Below, in pieces: positions 5,218 to 15,363 of a DNA stretch of 64,000 bases. The DNA lies in NCBI GenBank assembly GCA_964618495.1, contig CAZUBE010000006.1, positions 2,727 through 66,726 on the forward strand, written 5' to 3'. This DNA is from an uncultured Brachymonas sp. Lineage in GTDB: Bacteria; Pseudomonadota; Gammaproteobacteria; Burkholderiales; Burkholderiaceae_C. Position numbers and translations under genes: made by a program. Numbering within the stretch: the first letter of the stretch is position 1; each line of letters opens with the position of its first letter. The notes below the pieces were generated by a model. It ran no database searches, was not told the origin of the DNA, and saw only the letters and a list, made by a program, of their open reading frames with translations.

Positions 5218-5773
5218 TTATGCACAGTGTTGATATCTTGCAGCAAAAGCATTTCAGACACTTTTCGAAGCTGTATCGGCATTTCAATATAGATCGCTAA
5301 CCCATTGATTATATTAATATTTCCATGATTACACAAATTTCGAAAGAGTTTCTAAGCCATTGATTTCAAAGCATTAGGATTCGCTCACTGTTTTTTTATT
5401 CACAAAGTTATGCACAGGCAGAAAAAACCTTTGTGCAAAGCGGGTTTAGCGTATCTTTCGCAAAAAAACTTCATAAATTAGCGGTAAAACGAATGCTTTT
5501 AAGTTAATTGGTACTCAATTTCGTGTCTTGTAGAGCAGATGCTGCGAGTAATTGGGTTCGCTTGAAAAAAACACTGCCATGCGTATACAAGACTCATGCC
5601 ATGACTCAACGGCATTGTCTGGCTATTGCCCCTGCATCAAGTACAAAAACAAGGTAAGTCATTGATTTTATTTGCTTTCACAAATCTGCCTCATTTATCG
5701 GCAGATTGTGCAAACCCTTGATTTTGCAGGCTTTAAAAACTTGTCAACGCAGTCATACACAAAGTTATCCACA
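5218..5773. promoter_or_regulatory. AT-rich non-coding cluster of IHF consensus sites and DnaA boxes
   Basis: Four co-oriented YAANNNNTTGATW matches (5298, 5353, 5655, 5711). DnaA boxes TTATGCACA (5218, 5408) and TTATCCACA (5765), plus one-mismatch TCATACACA (5753). Confidence 0.65.
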
Positions 5774-5824
5774 TGAATTGTGGCTAAAAATGCAAGTTGC
5801 TTTTTCAAGCCGCATGCTGCAAAT

Positions 5825-6493
5825 TCAGGGCGCTGTTTCGCTGGGCATGAGCCAGCGTTTCTGTGCGGCAAATACGGCATTGGGATACTGTGGCTGACCA
5901 CGTGAGCCGTTGTAGCGCCCCAGCGCCATGTACATATTGCCGTTTTCACGGTGCAGGTAGTGGCGCAAAATGCTGCAGCCAAAGCGCAGATTGGTTTGCA
6001 TGTGAAACAGCTTGCCCGCGTCGCCATCACCAATGACGCGCGCCCAAAATGGCATGACCTGCATCAGCCCGCGTGCGCCTGCGTAAGAAATAGCGTATTT
6101 GCGAAAGTTGCTCTCTACCTGTATGAGCCCAAGCACGAGCGATATTTCCAGCCCCGCGCGCGCGGCTTCGTACCAAACGGTTTGCAAAAACTCTTGCCTG
6201 CTGAGCTCATCTACCATGCGGTTGCCAATGCGCGCGCTCATGGTGGTGAGCCAATACTGGTATTCGCGCTGGCTTTTGGCATCGGTAAAGTGCGGTATGG
6301 GTGGCGCACTGTTGCTGATTGCTGCGCTCAGTGCGGTGCGCACCGAGTCCACCATATGCTCTTCTTTTTGTGCGCCCGCGTGGACGGGGCTGTGCAAGCT
6401 GCCCAATGCTGACCCCAGCAAGCCCATCAGGCTGCCAGAAGCTGCTACTCCACCTAAACTTTGCAATACATTGCGGCGACTGACAAAACGCAC
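5825..6493 (-). CDS. Lytic transglycosylase (SLT domain) with twin-arginine-like leader
   Basis: LIQVESNF, GARGLMQVMP, NLRFGC and ALGRYNGS motifs. N-terminal SRRNVL. Confidence 0.92.
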   Translation of the reverse strand: MRFVSRRNVLQSLGGVAASGSLMGLLGSALGSLHSPVHAGAQKEEHMVDSVRTALSAAISNSAPPIPHFTDAKSQREYQYWLTTMSARIGNRMVDELSRQEFLQTVWYEAARAGLEISLVLGLIQVESNFRKYAISYAGARGLMQVMPFWARVIGDGDAGKLFHMQTNLRFGCSILRHYLHRENGNMYMALGRYNGSRGQPQYPNAVFAAQKRWLMPSETAP

Positions 6494-6507
6494 GGCTACA
6501 ACCCTCC

Positions 6508-8253
6508 TTATAGTTTGACTTGTGTTTGAACGAAGCTGGCAATATCGGCCAGAGCGATTTTTTGCGCTTCACCTGCGCGGCGGTGCAGGTATTCGCACTC
6601 GTCGGCGGCAATGCCTTTGTCTGAAAACACCACGCGGTGCGGCACGCCGATTAGCTCCCAGTCGGCAAACATCACGCCAGGGCGCTCGCCACGGTCGTCA
6701 AGCATGACATCCACACCTGCAGCCAGCAAGGTTTCGTACAGGCGCAAGGCTTCGGTTTTAACGACTTCGCTGCGCTCCATGCCGATGGGGCAAATCACCA
6801 CGGTAAACGGCGCAATGGCATCAGGCCAAATCATGCCGCGCTCGTCGTGGTTTTGCTCAATGGCGGCAGCGGGCAGGCGCGATACGCCGATGCCATAGCA
6901 CCCCATCTCGAAGAACTGGCTCTTGCCGTTGGCATCCAAAAAAGTAGCGTTCATAATTTGGCTGTATTTGGTGCCGAGGTAAAACACATGCCCCACCTCA
7001 ATGCCGCGCTCAACCGCCAGCGTGCCGTTGCCGCAGGGTGACAAGTCGCCATCAACCACGTTGCGCAAGTCTGCCACCAGTTGCGGCTCGGGCAAGTCGC
7101 GCGACCAGTTTACGCCTGTGATGTGAGCGTCTGCTTCGTTGGCTCCGCACACCCAGTCTGCCATCAGCACCACTTCGCGGTCTGCCACCACGGTAACGGG
7201 CTTGCGGGTATTTACAGGCCCCAAATAGCCAGGCTTGGTGCCAAAGTGAGCCAGCACTTCTTCTTCGGTGGCAAAGCGAAAGCCCTTTTCAAACCCGGGC
7301 AATTTGCCGACCTTGACTTCGTTCATATCGCGGTCGCCACGCAGCAGCAGCAGCCAGATATGGCTTTCCACCACAGCGCCTTGCTCGTTGCATTCATCCG
7401 TTGCCAGCACCAGCGATTTAACGGTGTTTTGCAGCGGCAGCTTGAGAAAAGCGGCAACATCGGCGCAGGTGCTTTGCCCGGGCGTAGGCACAACTTGCAT
7501 GGCTTGCGAAGCGGCTGGGCGTGTGTGAGTGGGCGCTTGCGCTTCGGCTTTTTCCATATTGGCGGCATAGCTGCTTTGGGGGCAATACACAATGGCATCT
7601 TCACCCGTAGCGGCAATAACCTGAAACTCCTCGCTCAAATCGCCACCAATTGCGCCGCTGTCAGCCGCTACAGCGCGGTAGTTCAGACCAAAACGGTCAA
7701 AAATGCAGCGGTATGCCTGCGCCATGTTTTGGTAGCTGAGCTGGGCGCTGGCAGCGTCTTTGTCAAAGCTGTAGGCGTCTTTCATGATGAACTCGCGCCC
7801 ACGCATCAGGCCAAAACGGGGGCGGCGTTCGTCGCGGAATTTGGTTTGAATCTGATAAAAGTTTTTAGGCAACTGCTTGTAGCTGCGCAAATCTTGCCGC
7901 GCAATGTCAGTAACCACTTCTTCGCTGGTGGGCTGAATTACGAACTGGTTTTCGTGGCGGTCTTGAATACGCAGCAGCTCGGGGCCCATTTTCTCGAAGC
8001 GCCCTGTTTCCTGCCACAACTCGGCAGGCTGCACGATGGGCATGGTGCATTCAATCGCGCCCGCGCGGTTCATCTCCTCGCGCACAATGGCTTCAACCTT
8101 GCGAATCACGCGCAAGCCCATAGGCATATAAGTGTAAATACCTGCGCCCAAACGCTTGATAAAACCAGCGCGCATCATCAGTTGGTGGCTAACGACTTCG
8201 GCATCGGCAGGCGCATCGCGCAGGGTGGTGAAGTGAAATTGAGAAGCTTTCAT
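6508..8253 (-). CDS. proS: Proline--tRNA ligase
   Basis: MKASQF..., [25 protein letters not shown], insertion editing domain, GIEVGHVF and MGCYGIG. Confidence 0.99.
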
Positions 8254-8388
8254 GGCAGTATCTGGGTAAGAATGAAGAAATCGTGCGCTGCACTTTGTAC
8301 AGGCAATAACAGGAATGTAGCCATATTTTCCTTGATATCGGCGCGTTGCCGTGCATAATGCACATAATTCAAGAATCTGGAGTTAATC

Positions 8389-9051
8389 ATGCTGGACCAA
8401 GAGGGCTTTCGCCCCAACGTCGGCATCATTTTGCTCAACCGTAAGAATCAGGTCTTCTGGGGCAAGCGTATCCGTACGCATAGCTGGCAGTTTCCACAAG
8501 GAGGCATAGACAGGGGCGAATCGCCTGAACAGGCTATGTTTCGCGAGCTGCACGAAGAAGTTGGTCTGCAACCGCACCATGTGCGCATTGTGGCCAGAAC
8601 CCGTGATTGGTTGCGCTATGAGGTGCCCGACCGCTACATTCGCCGCGACGCGCGCGGCCACTACAAAGGCCAAAAACAAATCTGGTACTTGCTGCAAATG
8701 CTGGGGCAAGACTGGGATTTGAACCTGCGCGCCACCAACCACCCCGAGTTTGACGCTTGGCGCTGGAACGACTACTGGGTGCCGCTAGACGTAGTCATCG
8801 AATTCAAACGCGGCGTGTACGAAATGGCGCTCACCGAGCTGGCGCGCTACGTGCCACGCCACGAATCGCGCAACCGCTACCTGCGCGCCAACCACAAAGG
8901 GCGCGAGCGCAACATGGAGCAAGAGCGCGAACCGTTTAGCCAACAGCTTTATGTGCCCAATGCCTTGCCACAAACGGCGCAGGCAGCTCCCCAGCTATTT
9001 GTGCCAGCAACGGCATTGCACTGCCCTTTGACTAAGGAAGAGCCCAAATGA
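8389..9051 (+). CDS. rppH: RNA pyrophosphohydrolase (Nudix) with C-terminal extension
   Basis: [24 protein letters not shown] and Nudix box RELHEEVG. Confidence 0.97.
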
Positions 9052-9581
9052 CATCTTTGCCAAACTGGCCGCGCCATGCTGTGCTTTGTCTGTCTAGCTG
9101 CTTGCTTGCAAGCGCAGCGCATGCACAACTGTTTTCAGACGCTGATACCCACTGGCGCGAAGGCGAAGTGCCCCAGCCCCCAGCCCTGAGCAGCAAAAAC
9201 ATGGTGCAGATCGACATGCCCTCTTACTCCGACTTGTTGGTAGGCGTGGATGTAGATAGCGTAAACGTTACCCCAAACGATGGCGTGGTGCGCTACGTTA
9301 CCGTGCTGCAAGGCGCTGATGGCTCGCTTTCGGCCTACTACCAAGGCGTGCATTGCGCCAACTACACGGGCCGCACTTACGCCCGCTACCGTTTTGATGC
9401 AAACCCGCCCGCATGGGAAAACATTGATGCCGAATGGCAAGAGTTGCGTGGAAGCAAAGCACGCTACGCCAATGCAGCCGCCCGTGCAGGCGCCTGCGAA
9501 AACTTTGTGCCCGCCAGCGACACCGCTACAGCCAAGCGCAACTACGCCAAAAACAGCAAGTGGACGGGCAAGCGGTTTTAA
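9048..9581 (+). CDS. CNP1-like family exported protein
   Basis: Signal peptide, W.E..VP.PP and DGVVRYV...G...YQGVHC pattern. ATGA-coupled to rppH, the usual Burkholderiales neighbour. Confidence 0.8.
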
Positions 9582-9583
9582 GC
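9495..9583 (+). repeat. 89-bp direct repeat, copy 1 (3' end of the CNP1-like gene)
   Basis: Identical to 10460-10548 at 88 of 89 positions (G9566 vs A10531). Confidence 0.97.
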
Positions 9584-9766
9584 TGCACCAACCTGAGACG
9601 CAGAGCCCCTGGCAATAAGTAGGAAAGAGTTCCAAACAGTCAGGATGCGCTACATATCAACTATACCAAATATGCCTAAAAGGTAATTTCAAGGCTTCCA
9701 TAGGGAGGCTTGAAAAATTTTAGTTACACACCAGAAAACACAAATTCAAACTATTTGGAGTTAAAC

Positions 9767-10430
9767 ATGAAAACATTTAACAATGAAAGATGTTATTATC
9801 TTGATACATTTAACTTATGGGAATGTCTAATTCGCCAAAAAAAGACAATAATCGCTGTATTTACTCTGGTGACAACAATCTCTATTATATATATTACAAG
9901 CCGCCCAACACTCTATCAAAGCCAAGCCAGCGTTATGATTGGAGAGCTGCTTTTTTTTTGAGACACAACCTATAGAAAGTCAAGAATCCATAAAATATCG
10001 CTACTCTACAGTTTTGGAAATAAGACCCATAAAAAATACACGCATTATAGAGGTCATATCCACATCAACAAACTCTGAAGAATCTAAGCATCAAGTAAAT
10101 AATACGATAGAAAAAATTATCAATGAACATGCGTCAATCTTTGATAAAAAAAGATCGGATTTTTTAAAATATGCCAATGAAATCTATAATAAAGACTTGG
10201 CCCCTAACAAAAAAAATATGCTCAACATGCTTGATTCGGCATCTTCTTCTAATGCAACACAGCAAATATCAGAAATAAGTACTACTGAATTTTATTATGG
10301 AGGAAATATTCGATCTAAACTCTCCATCGCCTTTGTATTAGGGCTTAGTCTTTCCCTTGTTTCTGCATTTTTAAAAGATTTTTTCGAAAGCAAAAAACTA
10401 TTTTCAAAAAATCAGTGTCGAATGGATTAA
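9767..10430 (+). pseudogene. Wzz/GumC-like polysaccharide chain-length-determinant gene, frameshifted at a T9 tract (pseudogene, phase-variable allele or sequencing error)
   Basis: RBS GGAG before ATG 9767. N-terminal TM followed by PTLYQSQASVMIG, and a C-terminal TM (IAFVLGLSLSLVSAFL). ORFs 9767-9961 and 9939-10430 fuse into 220 aa if T9 (9951-9959) is T8. About 30% GC in sampled lines. Confidence 0.7.
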
Positions 10431-10459
10431 ACTTTCAAGCCGTAACCCACGCATGTGCT

Positions 10460-10548
10460 TGCGAAAACTTTGTGCCCGCCAGCGACACCGCTACAGCCAA
10501 GCGCAACTACGCCAAAAACAGCAAGTGGACAGGCAAGCGGTTTTAAGC
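10460..10548 (+). repeat. 89-bp direct repeat, copy 2 (orphan duplicate of the CNP1-like 3' end)
   Basis: See copy 1. Runs directly into MITE copy B. Confidence 0.97.
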
Positions 10549-10707
10549 ACGCGCTGATTTGCGCCAGTTTCGTATAAGAACGCAATCGCTCGCCATTCAC
10601 GCGCAGGCGGGAATCTACAGCTATGCCCCTTATACGGATGGATTCCCGCCTGCGCGGGAATGACGGCTTTCTGAACTCTTTCTTGTAAAAAATAAATCGG
10701 CGTTTCT
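10547..10707 (+). mobile_element. MITE/REP-doublet element, copy B (complete, degenerate TIRs)
   Basis: Arms homologous to copy A; REPs at 10591-10616 and 10640-10665. TTAA on both sides (10543-46, 10708-11). Confidence 0.85.
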
Positions 10708-10756
10708 TTAAGAGGTTTTGTTTTTATTTTACGTTATATATACAACTGAGGGCTGT

Positions 10757-11518
10757 ATGGAAGTAATCTTATTAATAGTTGCTGCTTTTGTGGCCATCTT
10801 GGTTTTTGCCATTAATATTGATGACAAAAAACATAAAAGTGAAAAACAAAAAGTTGAAAAATTAACGCAAACAGTAGAACATATTGAGTCTATCATTCTC
10901 CCGCATGCCCGAACGCTTGCCATCAAATGGGATCAGCTGCCCTATAAAGATGATTACGGGAATTACATCTTTGATGATTGGGATAGAGAAGTCGAATATT
11001 TTATTACCAGTGTACTCCTGCAAGATGATGTGGCACGCCAGTTTTTAAATTCAGGGAATTTTGATGTTGATAACCAACGTCTTGCCACTGTAAGGGAAAT
11101 GGTGTCTGATATAGCTCACAAAGAAACTGAAAGAATGCTTGATGCAGCTTCAGATGAATATCTCGACGTTGATACTCTGACAGGCGAAGAATATGAGCGC
11201 TATTGCGCCTCTCTATTGAACAAACACGGATGGGATGCAAACCCCACAACGGCAACGGGCGATCAAGGCATAGACATTATCGGAAAAATAAATGGCATTA
11301 CTGCTGTTTTTCAATGCAAAAGATATTCGCAACCAGTTGGCAATGCCGCAGTGCAAGAAGTAATTGCTGGAAAAACTTTTGCACAAGCCCAATATGCAGC
11401 CGTTGTAAGCAACAGCACGTTTACAAAATCTGCCAGACAATTAGCCGATACAGCCAATGTATATTTACTGCACCATTCAGAACTTGAAGAATTTGCTGAA
11501 ATGATTTTGCCAAAATAA
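10757..11518 (+). CDS. Membrane-anchored Mrr-like (PD-(D/E)xK) restriction endonuclease domain protein
   Basis: GAGGG RBS. N-terminal hydrophobic helix (VILLIVAAFVAILVFAI). C-terminal EEYERYCASLL...GDQGIDII...FQCKRYSQPVGNAAVQEV...SNSTFTKSARQLA is the Mrr catalytic-domain pattern. AT-rich. Confidence 0.85.
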   Translation: MEVILLIVAAFVAILVFAINIDDKKHKSEKQKVEKLTQTVEHIESIILPHARTLAIKWDQLPYKDDYGNYIFDDWDREVEYFITSVLLQDDVARQFLNSGNFDVDNQRLATVREMVSDIAHKETERMLDAASDEYLDVDTLTGEEYERYCASLLNKHGWDANPTTATGDQGIDIIGKINGITAVFQCKRYSQPVGNAAVQEVIAGKTFAQAQYAAVVSNSTFTKSARQLADTANVYLLHHSELEEFAEMILPK

Positions 11519-11526
11519 TAATTTCG

Positions 11527-11665
11527 GGATGCGCTAACTTGTTTTTCATGCAAGAAAAAGCTCCGCACGTTGTCATTCCCGCGCAGGCGGGAATCTACTC
11601 GCATAAGGGGCGCAGCTGTGGATTCCCGCCTGCGCGGGAATGACGGTTTTCTGCATTCTTTCTTA
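11527..11665 (-). mobile_element. MITE/REP-doublet element, copy C (inverted, hybrid, one end truncated)
   Basis: Reverse-complement right arm at 11527-11570, REP doublet at about 11572-11644 with an inverted spacer, then a truncated forward right arm. Confidence 0.8.
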
Positions 11666-11797
11666 ACTGTGCGGATGTGCAAGTCACCCGCGCTATGTCT
11701 CCCACGCTACGCTTGCTGACCCAACTCACAGGCCTATGAACGATGCTGCAAGCTAGCTTCTTGCCAAGCCATACCCAAGCGGCACGCACCCCACCGA

Positions 11798-12484
11798 TTA
11801 CACCAACGGCATTAACCCACTTTGCGCCATAGAGGTGGTACGGCCTTGCGCCACGATGAGGTGGTCGAGCACGGCTATTTCTAGCAAGCCCAGTGCTTGT
11901 TGCAAGTGGCGGGTAAGGGCTATATCGGCAGATGAAGGCTCGGCGCAGCCGCTGGGGTGGTTGTGAGCCAGTAGCACGCTGGCGGCGTGGTGGTGCAGGG
12001 CGCGGCGGGCTACTTCGCGGGGGTAGACGCTGGTTTGGTTGAGGGTGCCGGTAAAGAGTGTTTCCATGCAGATAAGCTGGTGCTGGGAGTCGAGAAACAG
12101 CACGGCAAAACACTCGTGTGGCAAGTGTGCAAGGTGCATTTGCGCGTATTGGGCGGCAAGCTCGGGCTGGTTAAGGTGGGGGCGCTGTTGCATTTGCTGG
12201 GTGATGGCACGGCGAGCCAGCTCCATTACGGCTAATAGCTCAGCGCGTTTGGCTGTGCCGCCCAGCCCTTTGATGTTTTTGAGTTGCTCGGCGCTGGCAT
12301 TGAGCAAACCCGCCATGCCGCCGCAGTGCTCAAGCACTTCTTGCGCCATGATGAGGACGTTGCGGCCTGCTGTGCCTGTGCGTAGCAGCAAGGCGAGTAG
12401 CTCGGCATCGCTCAGCGCCGCTGCGCCGCGTGCCAGCAGTTTTTCGCGTGGCATGGCTTCTGTGGGGATGTGTTTGATTGCCAT
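11798..12484 (-). CDS. radC: RadC-family JAB/MPN domain protein
   Basis: [32 protein letters not shown] and AHNHPSG...PSSAD...LDHLIV. Confidence 0.95.
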
Positions 12485-12545
12485 AGTTAAAACCCGTTTT
12501 ACCAAATCTTCGCCAGATGTTTACCAGATGTTTGCTCAATGGCTA

Positions 12546-13031
12546 TTAGCCGCCCTTGGCATTGGCACTGCCCGCAAAGCCGCATTGCCGCCATGCTTCA
12601 AACACGACTACGGCTACGGCGTTTGACAAATTGAGACTGCGCTGCTCGGGAAGCATGGGCAGGCGCAGGCGCTGCGCGGGGGCAATGCTTTCGCGCACTG
12701 CGGGCGGCAAGCCAGCGCTTTCGCGGCCAAACAGCAACCAGTCGCCAGGCTGGAAACAGGTTTGGTGCACATGCTGCTGGCCTTTGGTGGTGAGGGCAAA
12801 CAGGCGCTGCGGGTTGGGTTGGGCAGTATCGAGAAAAGCCTGCCAGTTGGCGTGCCGCTGTACGCTGGCGTATTCGTGGTAGTCAAGACCAGCGCGGCGC
12901 ATTTGCTTGTCTTGCATGTCAAAGCCCAAGGGTTCTATCAAGTGCAGGGTGCAGCCCGTGTTGGCCGCAAGGCGAATGATGTTGCCGGTATTGGGCGGTA
13001 TTTCCGGCTGGTAGAGGATGATGTTAAACAT
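12546..13031 (-). CDS. trmL: tRNA (cytidine/uridine-34 2'-O)-methyltransferase (SPOUT)
   Basis: EIPPNTGNIIRL, RRAGLDYHE, FGRESAGLP and RSLNLSNAVAV. Confidence 0.97.
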   Translation of the reverse strand: MFNIILYQPEIPPNTGNIIRLAANTGCTLHLIEPLGFDMQDKQMRRAGLDYHEYASVQRHANWQAFLDTAQPNPQRLFALTTKGQQHVHQTCFQPGDWLLFGRESAGLPPAVRESIAPAQRLRLPMLPEQRSLNLSNAVAVVVFEAWRQCGFAGSANAKGG

Positions 13032-13121
13032 GGTGCGGCGCAGTGTAGCGCGTGTGCAGTGCTTATGGGCGCGTATGGGTGCGTGTGATTCCGATTCCAG
13101 ACAAAAAATGCACTAGATTTC

Positions 13122-13149
13122 CGTCATTTCCGCTTAGGCGGGAATGACG
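13122..13149. repeat. Collapsed single REP palindrome, copy D (remnant)
   Basis: CGTCATTTCCGCTTAGGCGGGAATGACG, with weak left-arm-like sequence upstream. Confidence 0.75.
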
Positions 13150-13294
13150 CTATGTGCGTAAAGCAAGGCTCTGCGCGGGGATAGCAGTTATTGTTTTTGA
13201 AGGTGGAAATGGAATAAGTGGCGTGCATGCGCTGCACGCGGCTGCCTTGTAGCCATGTGCTGGCTTGGGGCTGCCGCAAGGCGCTATCACAGCT

Positions 13295-14173
13295 TTAGGC
13301 CAGTGCGCGTTTACGCAACTCCATCATGCGCCAGACAAAGGGCGTAAAGATGAGCTGCATGGCGAGCTCCATTTTGCCGCCGGGTACAACGATGGTGTTG
13401 GCACGGCTCATGTAGCTGTCATGAATCATCGAAAGCAGATAGGGGAAGTCGATGCCTTTGGGGTTGGCAAAGCGGATAACAACCATGCTTTCGTCAGCGC
13501 TGGGGATGTCTTTAGCGATGAAGGGGTTGGAAGTATCAACCACCGGCACGCGCTGGAAATTGACGTGCGTACGCGAGAATTGCGGGCAGATGACGTTTAC
13601 ATAGTCGGGCATGCGACGCAGAATGGTGTCGGTTACGGCTTCGCTGCTGTAGCCGCGCAGTTTTTGGTCGCGCCAGAGTTTTTGTATCCACTCAAGGTTG
13701 ATGACAGGTACTACACCAATCAGCAAATCGGGGTATTGGGCGATGTTGATTTCTGGCGTGACGACACCACCATGCAGGCCTTCGTAGAAGAGGATGTCGG
13801 TATCTGCAGGCAGGTCTTGCCACTCGGTAAAGGTGCCGGGCTCTTGCTTGTAGGGTGCGGCTTCGCCAGCGTCGTGCAGGTAGCGGCGCGCCCTGCCCTG
13901 CCCAGTTTCGGCGTAAGAGGCAAACAGGGCTTGCAATTCGTCAAGCAGGTTGTTGTCCAGACCAAAATGGCTGAAGTGTGCATTGCCCTGCTGCTCGGCC
14001 TGCGCCTGCATGACCTTCATTTCCTTGCGGTTGTAGCGGTGAAAGCTGTCGCCTTCGATATTGGCCGCTTTGACTCCTTCGCGATTAAAAATGCCCGCAA
14101 AGGTGCGCGTAACGGTAGTTGTGCCTGCACCAGAAGAACCTGTGATGGCAATGATGGGGTGACGTTCAGACAT
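13295..14173 (-). CDS. prk: Phosphoribulokinase (class I, proteobacterial)
   Basis: IIAITGSSGAGTTT, EGDSFHRY, FYEGLHG and DTILRRMPDYV. Confidence 0.98.
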   Translation of the reverse strand: MSERHPIIAITGSSGAGTTTVTRTFAGIFNREGVKAANIEGDSFHRYNRKEMKVMQAQAEQQGNAHFSHFGLDNNLLDELQALFASYAETGQGRARRYLHDAGEAAPYKQEPGTFTEWQDLPADTDILFYEGLHGGVVTPEINIAQYPDLLIGVVPVINLEWIQKLWRDQKLRGYSSEAVTDTILRRMPDYVNVICPQFSRTHVNFQRVPVVDTSNPFIAKDIPSADESMVVIRFANPKGIDFPYLLSMIHDSYMSRANTIVVPGGKMELAMQLIFTPFVWRMMELRKRALA

Positions 14174-14241
14174 GGTTCGGTGTCCTTATGGAATGGTTAA
14201 AAAAACGTGTAGCACCTGCCCCAAAAGCAGGTTGCTGTGTA

Positions 14242-15363
14242 TCAGTGCCTAAACAGGCCGCGCTGTGCAAACAGCGGGTTGTGCAGCTCACATTGCGATT
14301 TTTCAGTGTGGTAGCGCTCAATACGCTCCACTTCATTTTTTGAGCCAAACACCAGCCCGATGCGTTGATGCAGCGATTCGGGCTGCACTTGCAAAATAGG
14401 GCAACGGCCTGTAGAGGCACGGCCACCAGCCTGCTCGATGATGAAGCCGATCGGGTTGGCCTCGTAGAGCAGGCGCAGACGGCCGGGTTTGCAGGGGTCT
14501 TTGGTGTCGCGCGGGTACATGAATACGCCGCCACGCATCAAAATACGATGCGCTTCAGCCACCATGCTGGCAATCCACCGCATATTGAAGTCTTTGCCGC
14601 GTGTGCCGGTTTTGCCTGCCAGACATTCATCTACATAGCGTTTAACGGGCGCTTCCCAAAAGCGGGCATTGCTGGCGTTGATGGCAAATTCTTGTGTATC
14701 GGGCGGTATGACCATATTGGGGTGGGTGAGCATGAACTGGCTCAGGTTGGGGTCAAGTGTGAAGCCGACCACGCCACGCCCCACGCTTAAGACCAGCATG
14801 GTGGTGGGGCCATACAGGGCGTAGCCTGCAGCAACCTGCTCGCAGCCGGGCTGCAAAAAGTCGGCAGCTACTACGTCGCGGCCGCTGTCAATCACTTCTT
14901 GCGGGGCGCGCAGAACCGAGAAGATACTGCCTACGGTAACGTTTACGTCGATATTGCTGGAGCCATCAAGCGGATCAAATACCAGCAGGTATTTACCACG
15001 TACCTGTCCTTCTGGGATTTGGTAGGGGTGCTCCATTTCTTCAGATGCCATGCCTGCCAAATGACCGCCCCAGTCGTTCATTTGGGTGAAGTATTCGTTG
15101 CTGATGACATCAAGCTCTTTTTGCTCTTCGCCCTGTATATTGACACCCGTTTGCACACAGTCTATGCCAGCAGTGGCATCCATGCTATTGATGGGCTGCC
15201 CGGGCATGGCGCCCAGCTTGCCAAAGGCGACCGCACGCGAAATGGCTTTGCAGGCCAGAGCCACATCGTGCATCAAGGCGTTAAAGGTACCGCTGGCATG
15301 TGGAAAGTGCTTGCGGTTATCAATCAAGTATTGCGTAAAAGTAATGCGGCGGTGCAGTGGCAT
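14242..15363 (-). CDS. fbp: Fructose-1,6-bisphosphatase class 1 (CbbF type)
   Basis: [34 protein letters not shown] and [11 protein letters not shown]. Confidence 0.97.

Follow-up and report, generated by a model that had tools for sequence, protein, structure and literature searches.

The DNA analysed in this study, a window of 64 kb, originates from a metagenome-assembled genome of Brachymonas (53 contigs, 97%-complete, 1.9 Mb). In a small variable islet between the gene of a CNP1-like lipoprotein and radC, it contains an insert of 876 bp (9584-10459) that is bracketed by two copies of the end of the former gene. The features of this region are listed below.

9048-9581, + strand: CNP1-like lipoprotein gene, 177 aa, intact (PF08750, E 4.5e-23)
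9495-9583, + strand: left repeat R (attL-like), completes the CNP1-like gene, G at 9566
9584-9766, + strand: left non-coding part of the insert, holds a terminator-like stem-loop
9767-10430, + strand: predicted mini polysaccharide co-polymerase (mini-PCP, Wzz/Wzc-like) gene, 220 aa when intact
10418-10452, + strand: truncated REP2 copy, a degenerate and AT-shifted copy of a palindromic repeat at the right end of the insert, overlapping the last codons of the mini-PCP gene
10453-10459, + strand: ATGTGCT, putative illegitimate joint between the truncated REP2 and R' (from alignments)
10460-10548, + strand: right repeat R' (attR-like), native end of the CNP1-like gene that was displaced and is untranslated, A at 10531
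10549-11797, no strand assigned: Y1 flank, remainder of the variable islet as far as radC, context outside the insert
10549-10692, no strand assigned: MITE-like repeat, inverted repeat with 11544-11660
10757-11518, no strand assigned: gene of a membrane-anchored Mrr_cat nuclease (Mrr_cat E 5.4e-23; PADLOC matches to Mrr-like nuclease modules)
11544-11660, no strand assigned: inverted MITE copy, part of the Y1 flank
11798-12505, - strand: radC, conserved right-hand neighbour (Pfam RadC, E 2e-44)

More than 10 public contigs encode exactly the protein of the CNP1-like gene. The final 29 codons of the gene and its stop are contained in R, whose right edge is located 2 nt past the TAA (9579-9581). 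By our own count, R and R' are identical at 88 of 89 positions, with the G at 9566 and the A at 10531 constituting the sole mismatch, 17 nt inside the right edge of R, which leaves 71 nt of uninterrupted identity to its left. A repeat finder extends the match to 103 nt (9481-9583 and 10446-10548, 94%), with the similarity past the left edge being patchy (9/14 over about 14 nt). Since there are exactly two copies of R across the full 1.9-Mb assembly, it is neither a dispersed repeat nor a chance match. A pattern scan for the 71-nt segment, termed r1, retrieved a single metagenome contig (L038) and none of the species-representative genomes. The repeat pair around a low-GC segment, described in a first-pass annotation of this DNA, is thus real by the repeat finder, our count and the two genomic copies. 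The GC content, put there at about 30%, is indeed low (33.9% vs 54% for the window), the stated figure being slightly underestimated. ORF list and Pfam also agree with the earlier description of a single Wzz-like gene and with the absence of integrase and transposase domains in or adjoining the insert.

The non-coding part that precedes the cargo gene contains a stem-loop (9687-9715) followed by A5T4, with a predicted folding energy of -14.7 kcal/mol (z -4.4) that was equalled by 0 of 200 shuffled sequences. From its sequence, this stem-loop would be a terminator-like element that is now found 3' of the CNP1-like gene. A search of Rfam returned only chance sub-threshold matches, and this left part is matched neither elsewhere in the genome nor in 40 relatives. 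At the opposite end, the insert terminates in the truncated copy of REP2, a repeat family marked by the sequence GTAGGGTGGGTTAGGCTGCAAGCCGTAACCCACGCGG, with genomic copies on contigs C22, C37 and C1. The right-end similarity score of 48 compares to 18.3 +/- 3.3 in shuffles, with 0 of 300 being as good, and the copy in the insert has lost its folding. A REP2-like right end is, according to our alignment, also found on the alternative cargo of a second flank type, Y2. The adjacent joint can be searched as ATGTGCT directly followed by TGCGAAAAC, and at 10459/10460 the identity between both regions falls sharply from 99% to about 50%. Together, joint and REP2 end account for the patchy 9/14 similarity to 9481-9494. 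As judged from these alignments, the right inner joint is probably illegitimate, situated beside a truncated palindromic repeat and with only patchy microhomology. An assignment of the 29 nt left of R' as a piece of a foreign CNP1 gene was dropped, as they align to the REP2 family. We rejected that the Y2 cargo terminates in a third CNP1 tail that has decayed, a reading that would have implied serial accretion, as the REP2 end explains the respective bases. We have also discarded mobilisation of the RAYT or IS200/IS605 type, in light of the absence of a Y1 HUH transposase (PF01797) from the 97%-complete genome and the presence of an 89-bp duplication.

The cargo is predicted to be a miniature polysaccharide co-polymerase, a PCP-like membrane protein. 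Pfam assigns 27.0 bits to the match of its N-terminal piece with Wzz and 24.3 bits to the intact protein, vs a gathering cut-off of 25.5. An AF2 model (pLDDT 70) comprises a helix at residues 25-44, strands, a long helix at 103-140 and a helix at 181-214, and it conforms to the PCP layout of an N-terminal transmembrane helix, a periplasmic alpha/beta base with helical hairpin and a C-terminal transmembrane helix. In a Foldseek search of the PDB, all top 50 matches are PCPs, the best being Wzc (7nhr, E 2.6e-6, TM(query) ~0.54), and the full-length polysaccharide co-polymerase 6rbg, KpsE and WzzE are found among the top matches. Proteins of the PCP-1 class usually comprise about 320-380 residues and carry a proline-rich motif before TM2. 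In the cargo, with its mere 220 residues, no motif of the type P-x2-P-x4-SPK was seen in front of TM2. Its homologues are confined to a rare family of 200-235-residue proteins (52 clusters in 1.84 billion). Searches of phage and plasmid collections with the cargo protein gave no match, PADLOC gave no hit for the cargo, and a search for a conserved partner gene of the mini-PCP found none. Across assemblies, three homopolymer runs, whose states were read in 16 contigs, switch the reading frame on and off: a run at 9951-9959, which is T9 and shifts the frame in the window while T8 leaves it intact, A7/A8 at 9830-9836 and A8/A9 at 10210-10217.

The described structure could in principle reflect an artefact of metagenome assembly, in which a repeat was collapsed or threaded wrongly or two strains were joined into a chimera, as may be suspected from the origin of the window in a MAG of 53 contigs, from a stretch of 71 identical nucleotides that exceeds common k values and from the breakage of contigs of the closest species at R. 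This explanation is, however, extremely improbable in light of the agreement between several assemblers and projects, which includes MEGAHIT contigs at k=127 and an independent 45-kb scaffold (L042) that rebuilds the structure and that is 99.988% identical over window positions 5767-14430, with T8 vs T9 as the only difference. One or both junctions are in addition crossed by at least 8 further contigs, obtained from different samples and assemblers, and L031 and L044 cover both. The linkage of the variable base, G to the cassette and A to the flank, is also constant, even in k=31 Logan unitigs from 12 samples.

In a census of contigs that span all 71 nt of r1, with X denoting the body of the CNP1-like gene, the left junction is found as X-r1-G-cassette in eight contigs and the right junction as joint-r1-A-Y1 in five, among them L052, whose r1 bears a private A-to-C change, or as joint-r1-A-Y2 in two. 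Empty sites are found as X-r1-A-Y1 in four (L030, L037, L051 and L055) and as X-r1-A-Y2 in three. The four empty Y1 sites, with the order X-R-Y1 and flanks that are 99.9-100% identical, correspond to the product that recombination between R and R' was predicted to restore in the first-pass annotation, and which is thus found in nature. As the k=31 Logan contig L030 passes R unbranched, its sample contains only the empty allele. Occupied and empty alleles were both found in wastewater metagenomes and in two cases within the same sample (L043 and L036 in ERZ15185466; L047 and L051 in ERZ28614435). The absence of the cassette DNA from 40 relatives contradicts an insertion that is fixed and ancient across them; the absence of substitutions in the cassette in all assemblies and the single difference between the repeats instead agree with the recent insertion that had been proposed.

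The coexistence of both alleles in one sample and a cassette without substitutions despite its linkage to several flank haplotypes would both be accounted for by an active minicircle, where a 965-bp unit of cassette and one tail copy is repeatedly excised and re-integrated, acting as reversible switch or self-spreading DNA. We consider this process very unlikely, since co-occurring alleles may belong to separate strains, a repeat of 89 bp allows only rare RecA events, and recombinant, circle or tandem joints (joint-r1-G-cassette) are absent from the contig census. The uniformity of the cassette is uninformative in this respect, as the flank variants are mostly sister-lineage alleles that reflect introgression or mosaics made by the assembler, and alleles of this kind are not available to the cassette. 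For the same reason we have withdrawn the view that zero diversity in the cassette compared to diverse flanks would signify its recent spread. All four combinations of presence or absence of the cassette with either Y1 or Y2 exist, those with Y2 possibly as chimeras across a shared stretch of 86-107 bp. In particular, the occupied Y2 contigs (L031 and L044), with window-type DNA on the left and a G005-type radC (100% identical) on the right, could have been joined in this way during assembly. Haplotype arguments built on metagenome contigs are weak.

The single base that distinguishes both repeats provides insight into their origin. R' is identical to the allele of the empty site (L030 and L037) in 89 of 89 positions, whereas R matches it in 88. 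The private change found in R' of L052 is expected of a spare copy. G is found in all eight contigs that join the body of the CNP1-like gene to the cassette, while R' and every empty site of the lineage carry A, and it thus appears from sequence comparison that the left copy has come in with the insert. Since G is native in a contig of the sister lineage (L038), the ancestry of the left copy differs from that of the right. This pattern fits the Campbell topology that the first-pass annotation had put forward, with the left G being absent from empty sites of the lineage and the native A retained on the right. As a caveat, the G/A mismatch may have arisen by mutation after the insertion, which would make both copies native. 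Two native copies are implied in long target duplication in the strict sense, where a double-strand break with staggered or processed ends, located where the CNP1-like gene ends, would have received the foreign fragment by ligation or copying, with G 9566 then stemming from a subsequent synonymous change or from a short patch of gene conversion. All structural hallmarks of Furuta et al. 2010 are found at the locus (a genome-wide unique repeat above 30 bp, of which the empty site has one copy, and the lack of a mobility gene), and the neighbouring islet contains nuclease and restriction-modification genes, whose products generate breaks. Still, the difference between the copies matches the native allele of the sister lineage (L038) in position and base, for which random mutation would have a chance of about 1 in 100-300, and the cargo is not a restriction-modification system. 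We thus regard a break-induced duplication as improbable.

The 876-bp segment is a real and recent insertion of one foreign gene that falls into the class of insertions with long target duplication (ILTD). On balance, we hold it probable that it was acquired once and without involvement of a recombinase, when a foreign fragment that had closed into a circle entered by one Campbell-type crossover. In the proposed sequence of events, DNA would have come from a related locus containing a CNP1 tail with the G allele, the terminator, the mini-PCP gene and REP2, with cuts near codon 150 of CNP1 and within REP2 having released the donor piece. Self-closure at an illegitimate joint, now residing at 10453-10459, would have generated a circle of about 965 bp, whose 89-bp tail could have engaged with the chromosomal tail in one host RecA-type crossover. 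The product would be the gene body followed by the incoming tail (G), terminator, cargo, joint, displaced native tail (A) and the old flank. The observed structure is exactly what a single crossover of such a circle yields. The location of the cassette-borne terminator behind the rebuilt CNP1-like gene is in support of this route. Against it stand the lack of circle or tandem joints in the contigs and the finding of ComEC as the only competence gene, which is also present in E. coli, so that natural competence of Brachymonas is not implied. A donor locus with the mini-PCP gene and full REP2 but no R' was not encountered among the contigs, as every contig with the gene has the same junctions. 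Later spread may have proceeded by ordinary homologous recombination with the CNP1/rppH region and R' as arms, and later loss by recombination of R with R', leading to the empty site of other strains, with the direction of both being deduced. It is a distinctly doubtful extension of this scheme that the 965-bp unit of cargo and its own tail copy would be a self-sufficient mobile module that, without a recombinase, leaves as circle via R and R' and enters any CNP1 allele by its 89-bp arm, with recurrent contig ends at 9659 and 10447 reflecting a second molecular form. If true, the population would gain a copy of a phase-variable regulator of surface polysaccharides that can be turned on and off reversibly and passed on horizontally.

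There is precedent for a single crossover of this kind in E. coli, where DNA with homology on one side only integrated mostly by a single crossover of a circle that had lost part of the homology, resulting in target duplications of 109-950 bp (Amarir-Bouhram et al. 2011, PMC3240628). Common to both cases are the direct duplication of the retained homology, the lack of a dedicated recombinase and one novel illegitimate joint, and the process is related to homology-facilitated illegitimate recombination. In contrast to the laboratory plasmid and conjugation experiments in E. coli, the circle is only deduced in our case and the homology, with 89 bp, is shorter.

A different origin would be a relic or satellite resembling CIMEs, which are cis-mobilizable elements (Guedon et al. 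2017, PMC5704250). An element with tyrosine integrase would have entered the 3' end of the CNP1-like gene with a replacement tail, and subsequent deletion would have left attL, one cargo gene and attR, with a remnant that an integrase could still move in trans. The likeness to such elements and to 3'-end integrase islands lies in the order attL-cargo-attR, in the left repeat that completes the gene, the right repeat that represents a spare tail and the end of the repeat at the stop codon. The same genome encodes six tyrosine recombinases and contains an 8.2-kb island with P4-type integrase behind the isocitrate lyase gene, whose 232-bp repeats end exactly at the stop codon. Elsewhere, a 36%-identical homologue of the cargo is found between two recombinase gene ends (L039). 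Yet the insert, with 876 bp and one gene, differs from CIMEs in lacking a cognate integrase, arm- or core-type sites and signs of descent from an ICE or IME. An integrase-bearing element occupies the site in none of about 40 contigs and 14 genomes of the genus, and the inner joint is located in a truncated repeat of host type instead of an arm-type region. These repeats bracket no second cargo. A dyad of 8/9-6-8/9 at 9474-9497, which would favour such an element, was rejected as recombinase core, since it is missing from the partner on the cassette side, the spacers of both partners differ and about 4% of random windows contain comparable dyads. We thus consider descent from an integrase-driven element unlikely. 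With neither a cognate integrase nor a shared recombinase-type core, the suggestion that the protein-coding 3' end serves as a dedicated attachment site also finds no support.

The event belongs to the known class of insertions with long target duplication, a phenomenon that is already in print and that was reportedly treated by Nobusato et al. in 2000 (Gene 259:99). Cases are known from many bacteria, among them Burkholderia and the comamonad Acidovorax (Furuta, Abe & Kobayashi 2010, PMC2853133). The insert shares with this class direct repeats above 30 bp (here 89 bp) with no further copies in the genome and with only one copy at the conspecific empty site, a small size (<20 kb), the lack of integrase and transposase, a deviant GC content and the overlap of the repeat with the 3' end of a gene. 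It differs in its cargo, a mini polysaccharide co-polymerase rather than a restriction-modification system (the latter being a search criterion of Furuta 2010 and not mechanistic), in the one-site mismatch that points to a foreign left copy, and in the observation of both alleles in population metagenomes. We see no novel type of mobile element in this locus. It instead provides a clean natural example of a single accessory gene entering a bacterial chromosome without integrase or transposase, where one marker base tells which gene tail came in and which native one was displaced, a distinction that few published ILTD cases permit. For a part of the ILTD cases at least, it argues in favour of the single-crossover (Campbell) route, and it extends the class beyond restriction-modification cargo.

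The surrounding islet is itself variable. The suggestion that an adjacent mobile repeat may have assisted the insertion is unsupported, because the MITE-like repeat (10549-10692) takes part in neither junction and the cassette is also joined to a flank without it (L031 and L044). Differing whole-gene cargo between the same conserved genes of close relatives, in the absence of mobility genes, is reminiscent of the minimal mobile elements of Neisseria (Saunders & Snyder 2002; Snyder et al. 2007; as defined in PMC3787668), which, however, are exchanged via both flanks with no need for a duplication, whereas this insert brings its own copy of the left-flank tail. In other Brachymonas species (G008, G001 and G011), only about 26-235 bp separate the CNP1-like gene from radC. 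The sister lineage G005/L058 shows the order CNP1-R(A)-lipoprotein-radC. The cargo at this position consists of the mini-PCP gene with Mrr_cat in the window, of Mrr_cat alone in L030 and L051, of a 210-aa lipoprotein in L058 and of a C5-MTase::HpaII fusion in L038, with the neighbouring islet genes being nuclease or restriction-modification genes.

The window derives from a 1.9-Mb Brachymonas MAG (53 contigs, Comamonadaceae), in which proS, rppH (NUDIX) and a CNP1-like lipoprotein gene are followed by 2.2 kb of low-GC DNA and by radC, trmL and prk. The features of this interval that are relevant for the insertion are listed with their window coordinates.

Features of the duplicated gene tail and the insert
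9048-9581: CNP1-like lipoprotein gene
9495-9583: left repeat (R), made up of the closing 87 nt of the CNP1-like gene and the 2 nt behind its stop codon
9687-9715: stem-loop (-14.7 kcal/mol, z -4.4), then A5T4
9767-10430: only gene of the insert, a Wzz/Wzc-like polysaccharide co-polymerase gene (mini-PCP); intact form 220 aa, membrane helix at N- and C-terminal ends
10418-10452: degenerate right end of the insert, an AT-shifted, truncated copy of the palindromic repeat REP2, into which the final codons of the gene run
10460-10548: right repeat (R'), 88/89 identical to R
11798-12505: radC, on the strand opposite to the upstream genes

The repeat is present in exactly two copies genome-wide, and the sole mismatch between them, G at 9566 versus A at 10531, affects a synonymous third-codon position. 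The enclosed segment comprises 876 bp with a GC content of 33.9%, compared to 54% for the window. The observation of the first-pass annotation is confirmed as stated, except for its estimate of about 30% GC for the cassette, which is corrected by the measured value.

The duplicated-tail structure is not an assembly artefact. Among about 30 contigs gathered by exact-protein look-up from Logan, MEGAHIT (k=127), SPAdes and other pipelines, covering several projects including wastewater metagenomes, the independently assembled 45-kb scaffold L042 matches window positions 5767-14430 at 99.988% identity, the single difference being T8 in place of the T9 of the window. The connection from the gene body through the whole of R into the cassette is contained in eight contigs (G in 8/8), and that from the inner joint through R' into the downstream flank in seven (A in 7/7). 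Even the Logan unitigs built at k=31 (953-954 bp, 12 samples) prove that G leads into the cassette, the distinguishing base being located just 17 nt inside the right edge of R. The allele lacking the cassette, in which the CNP1-like gene proceeds directly to the downstream flank as expected from the first reading of the locus, is found in four public contigs (L030, L037, L051 and L055), which contain a single R with A between flanks of 99.9-100% identity. One of them, the 4.6-kb k=31 contig L030, is unbranched through R and its sample therefore harbours only the empty allele. The cassette was not found in 40 related genomes. Other Brachymonas species have about 26-235 bp between the CNP1-like gene and radC, and in the closest sister lineage (genome G005, about 92-96% identical in this region) the order is CNP1-R(A)-lipoprotein gene-radC, as contained in a 53-kb scaffold and at numerous comparable sites. 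The reconstruction of the same junctions by several pipelines, together with the empty sites and the absence from relatives, thus argues against both a misassembly and a fixed, ancient insertion. As a separate observation, contigs of independent assemblies start or end at identical positions within the cassette, namely at 9659 and 10447 (L043/L047 and L035/L046), and also at 9478 and 10514; these ends could be branch points of the assembly graph, in which case a 789-bp core would have a second context or a second form, or could alternatively originate from library bias at about 1x coverage.

The mismatch between the repeats bears on the origin of the two copies. All empty sites in the window's lineage have A, as does the displaced right copy; the left copy that completes the gene always has G. 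G is native at this position in the sister-lineage contig L038, and the chance that a new mutation would produce exactly this base at exactly this site is roughly 1 in 100-300. More simply, the left copy (or its right end at the least) would have arrived with the insert, R' being the recipient's own tail. A single crossover of the chromosomal tail with a circle that bears a CNP1 tail would place the incoming copy on the left and the native copy on the right. In contrast, such a distribution would not be predicted if the recipient's target had been duplicated de novo.

The ends of the insert can be reconciled with a single crossover. On the left, it begins with 183 nt of non-coding DNA, whose stem-loop and A5T4 look like a terminator at present serving the rebuilt CNP1-like gene. 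On the right, REP2, a repeat family (GTAGGGTGGGTTAGGCTGCAAGCCGTAACCCACGCGG...) that has genomic copies on contigs C1, C22 and C37, is separated from R' by the 7 nt ATGTGCT. The partial similarity initially noted to the left of R' is indeed present but patchy (9/14), and it consists of the REP2 end and these seven bases. Identity drops from 99% to about 50% at exactly 10459/10460. The stretch is an illegitimate joint rather than a degraded extension of the repeat. The truncated REP2 adjoining it fits a donor fragment that would have been broken within REP2 and then self-closed. An experimental precedent comes from E. coli: when homology-facilitated illegitimate recombination was sought there, most of the integrants recovered had arisen by a single crossover with a circle from which part of the homology had been lost, and contained target duplications of 109-950 bp (PMC3240628).

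As stated in the first-pass annotation, neither the insert nor its neighbouring genes encode an integrase or transposase. The genome contains no Y1 (IS200/RAYT) transposase, and no link was found between any of its six tyrosine recombinases and the CNP1 tail. A topology like that of R-cassette-R' is found in a classical 8.2-kb island that has integrated at the 3' terminus of the gene for isocitrate lyase (G000:C3:136297-144696 in the window's own MAG; L048 1798-10197), and whose 232-bp direct repeats are 99.6% identical and end at the stop codon. This island differs by its on-board P4-type tyrosine integrase (Arm-DNA-bind_3 + Phage_integrase), one of the six recombinases, which is accompanied by a DUF3631 protein. 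That the cassette would be a CIME-type relic or a trans-mobilised satellite is unlikely, with no positive sign in its favour. A dyad at 9474-9497 was rejected as recombinase core, being missing from the cassette-side partner and not unusual. The proposal of a cassette with a dedicated attachment site is not supported, as no second cargo was found between the same repeats in the contigs and relatives compared, nor is the suggested assistance by a mobile repeat, the MITE following R' being part of neither junction. What is supported is a recent, polymorphic insertion that fits a single-crossover topology; the initial observation is confirmed and its interpretation partly supported. The MITE/REP family (window 10576-10692 and 11544-11660; core ATTCCCGC-N4-GCGGGAAT) resembles dRS3-type repeats of Neisseria; 97 cores were counted across the 1.9 Mb of this genome, and the sister genome G005 gave about 90 BLAST hits. 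Elsewhere in the window, a hicAB toxin-antitoxin pair resides between imperfect direct repeats (664-702 and 1405-1447; CATGCGTTCCCTTTTTTATTGGC plus TGGGGCTGGGTG) and may constitute a second small recombinase-free insertion.

The Brachymonas insertion belongs to an already described class. It shows all structural hallmarks of an insertion with long target duplication, a class documented for restriction-modification genes across many bacteria, Acidovorax and Burkholderia among them (Furuta et al., 2010, PMC2853133). It is distinguished by its non-restriction-modification cargo, by a marker separating the incoming from the native tail and by the direct observation of both alleles in nature. The whole CNP1-radC interval behaves like a minimal mobile element (PMC3787668) with alternative gene contents.

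Alternative contents of the CNP1-radC islet
Window 10549-11664 (this lineage): MITE-flanked, membrane-anchored Mrr_cat nuclease gene
L031 2068-2973 (sister lineage): lipoprotein gene, 210 aa, 41% GC; the public collection lists it in 582 index blocks
L038 4876-6840 (minus strand of that locus): gene for a 654-aa C5-methyltransferase::HpaII endonuclease fusion

The mini-PCP and lipoprotein cargos, both of low GC, end in the same AT-shifted REP2 variant (right ends z about 9 versus shuffles); the similarity of their left ends versus shuffles is only marginal. Besides window 10418-10452, REP2 (starting GTAGGGTGGGTTAGGC...) is located at about 2898-2945 of L031 and, in the copy on C22, at about 620-720. 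This ending may go back to a donor common to both cargos, to a terminator that they share or to a site at which breaks are favoured. Occupied alleles are found on several flank haplotypes, with 0 substitutions in the cassette itself. Since most flank variants are sister-lineage alleles, which could stem from introgression or assembler mosaics, and since the sister lineage offers no counterpart with which the cassette could recombine, the cassette's lack of diversity was discarded as a sign of recent spread. In L031 and L044, window-type left DNA (99.2-99.5% on the rppH-CNP1 side) and the cassette are joined to the lipoprotein flank and radC of the sister lineage (radC side 90-93% identical to the window and, in L031, 100% to G005), so that each contig represents either a true recombinant between the lineages, with its breakpoint in R', or an assembly chimera formed over the 86-107 bp that they have in common.

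The Pfam Wzz scores of the mini-PCP are around the cut-off (27.0 and 24.3 bits), and the top PDB matches of its AlphaFold model (pLDDT 70) are exclusively polysaccharide co-polymerases (Wzc, a full-length polysaccharide co-polymerase (6rbg), WzzE and KpsE; best E 2.6e-6). The protein is ~100-150 aa shorter than classical Wzz proteins and belongs to a rare family of 200-235 aa (52 clusters among 1.84 billion representatives). A resident co-polymerase of Wzc size is encoded on a separate contig of the genome. Three homopolymer runs of the gene (9830-9836, 9951-9959 and 10210-10217) vary among assemblies.

Reading frame and run lengths at 9830, 9951 and 10210
Intact: A7, T8, A8; nine contigs, one of them a unitig from 7 samples
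Off: A7, T9, A8; window and L029 (the latter in 4 samples)
Off: A8, T8, A8; L034
Off: A7, T8, A9; L028

The frameshift in this assembly had been absent from the first-pass annotation. At the position of the T-run, homologues (38% identical) contain a variable poly-Q tract of 3-12 residues. With these differences in run length, a putative surface-polysaccharide modulator would seem to be phase-variable or to have been inactivated repeatedly. A 36%-identical homologue is found in L039 (1-2394), where two convergent tyrosine recombinase genes enclose, between their 3' ends, both this homologue and an unknown gene of 307 aa.
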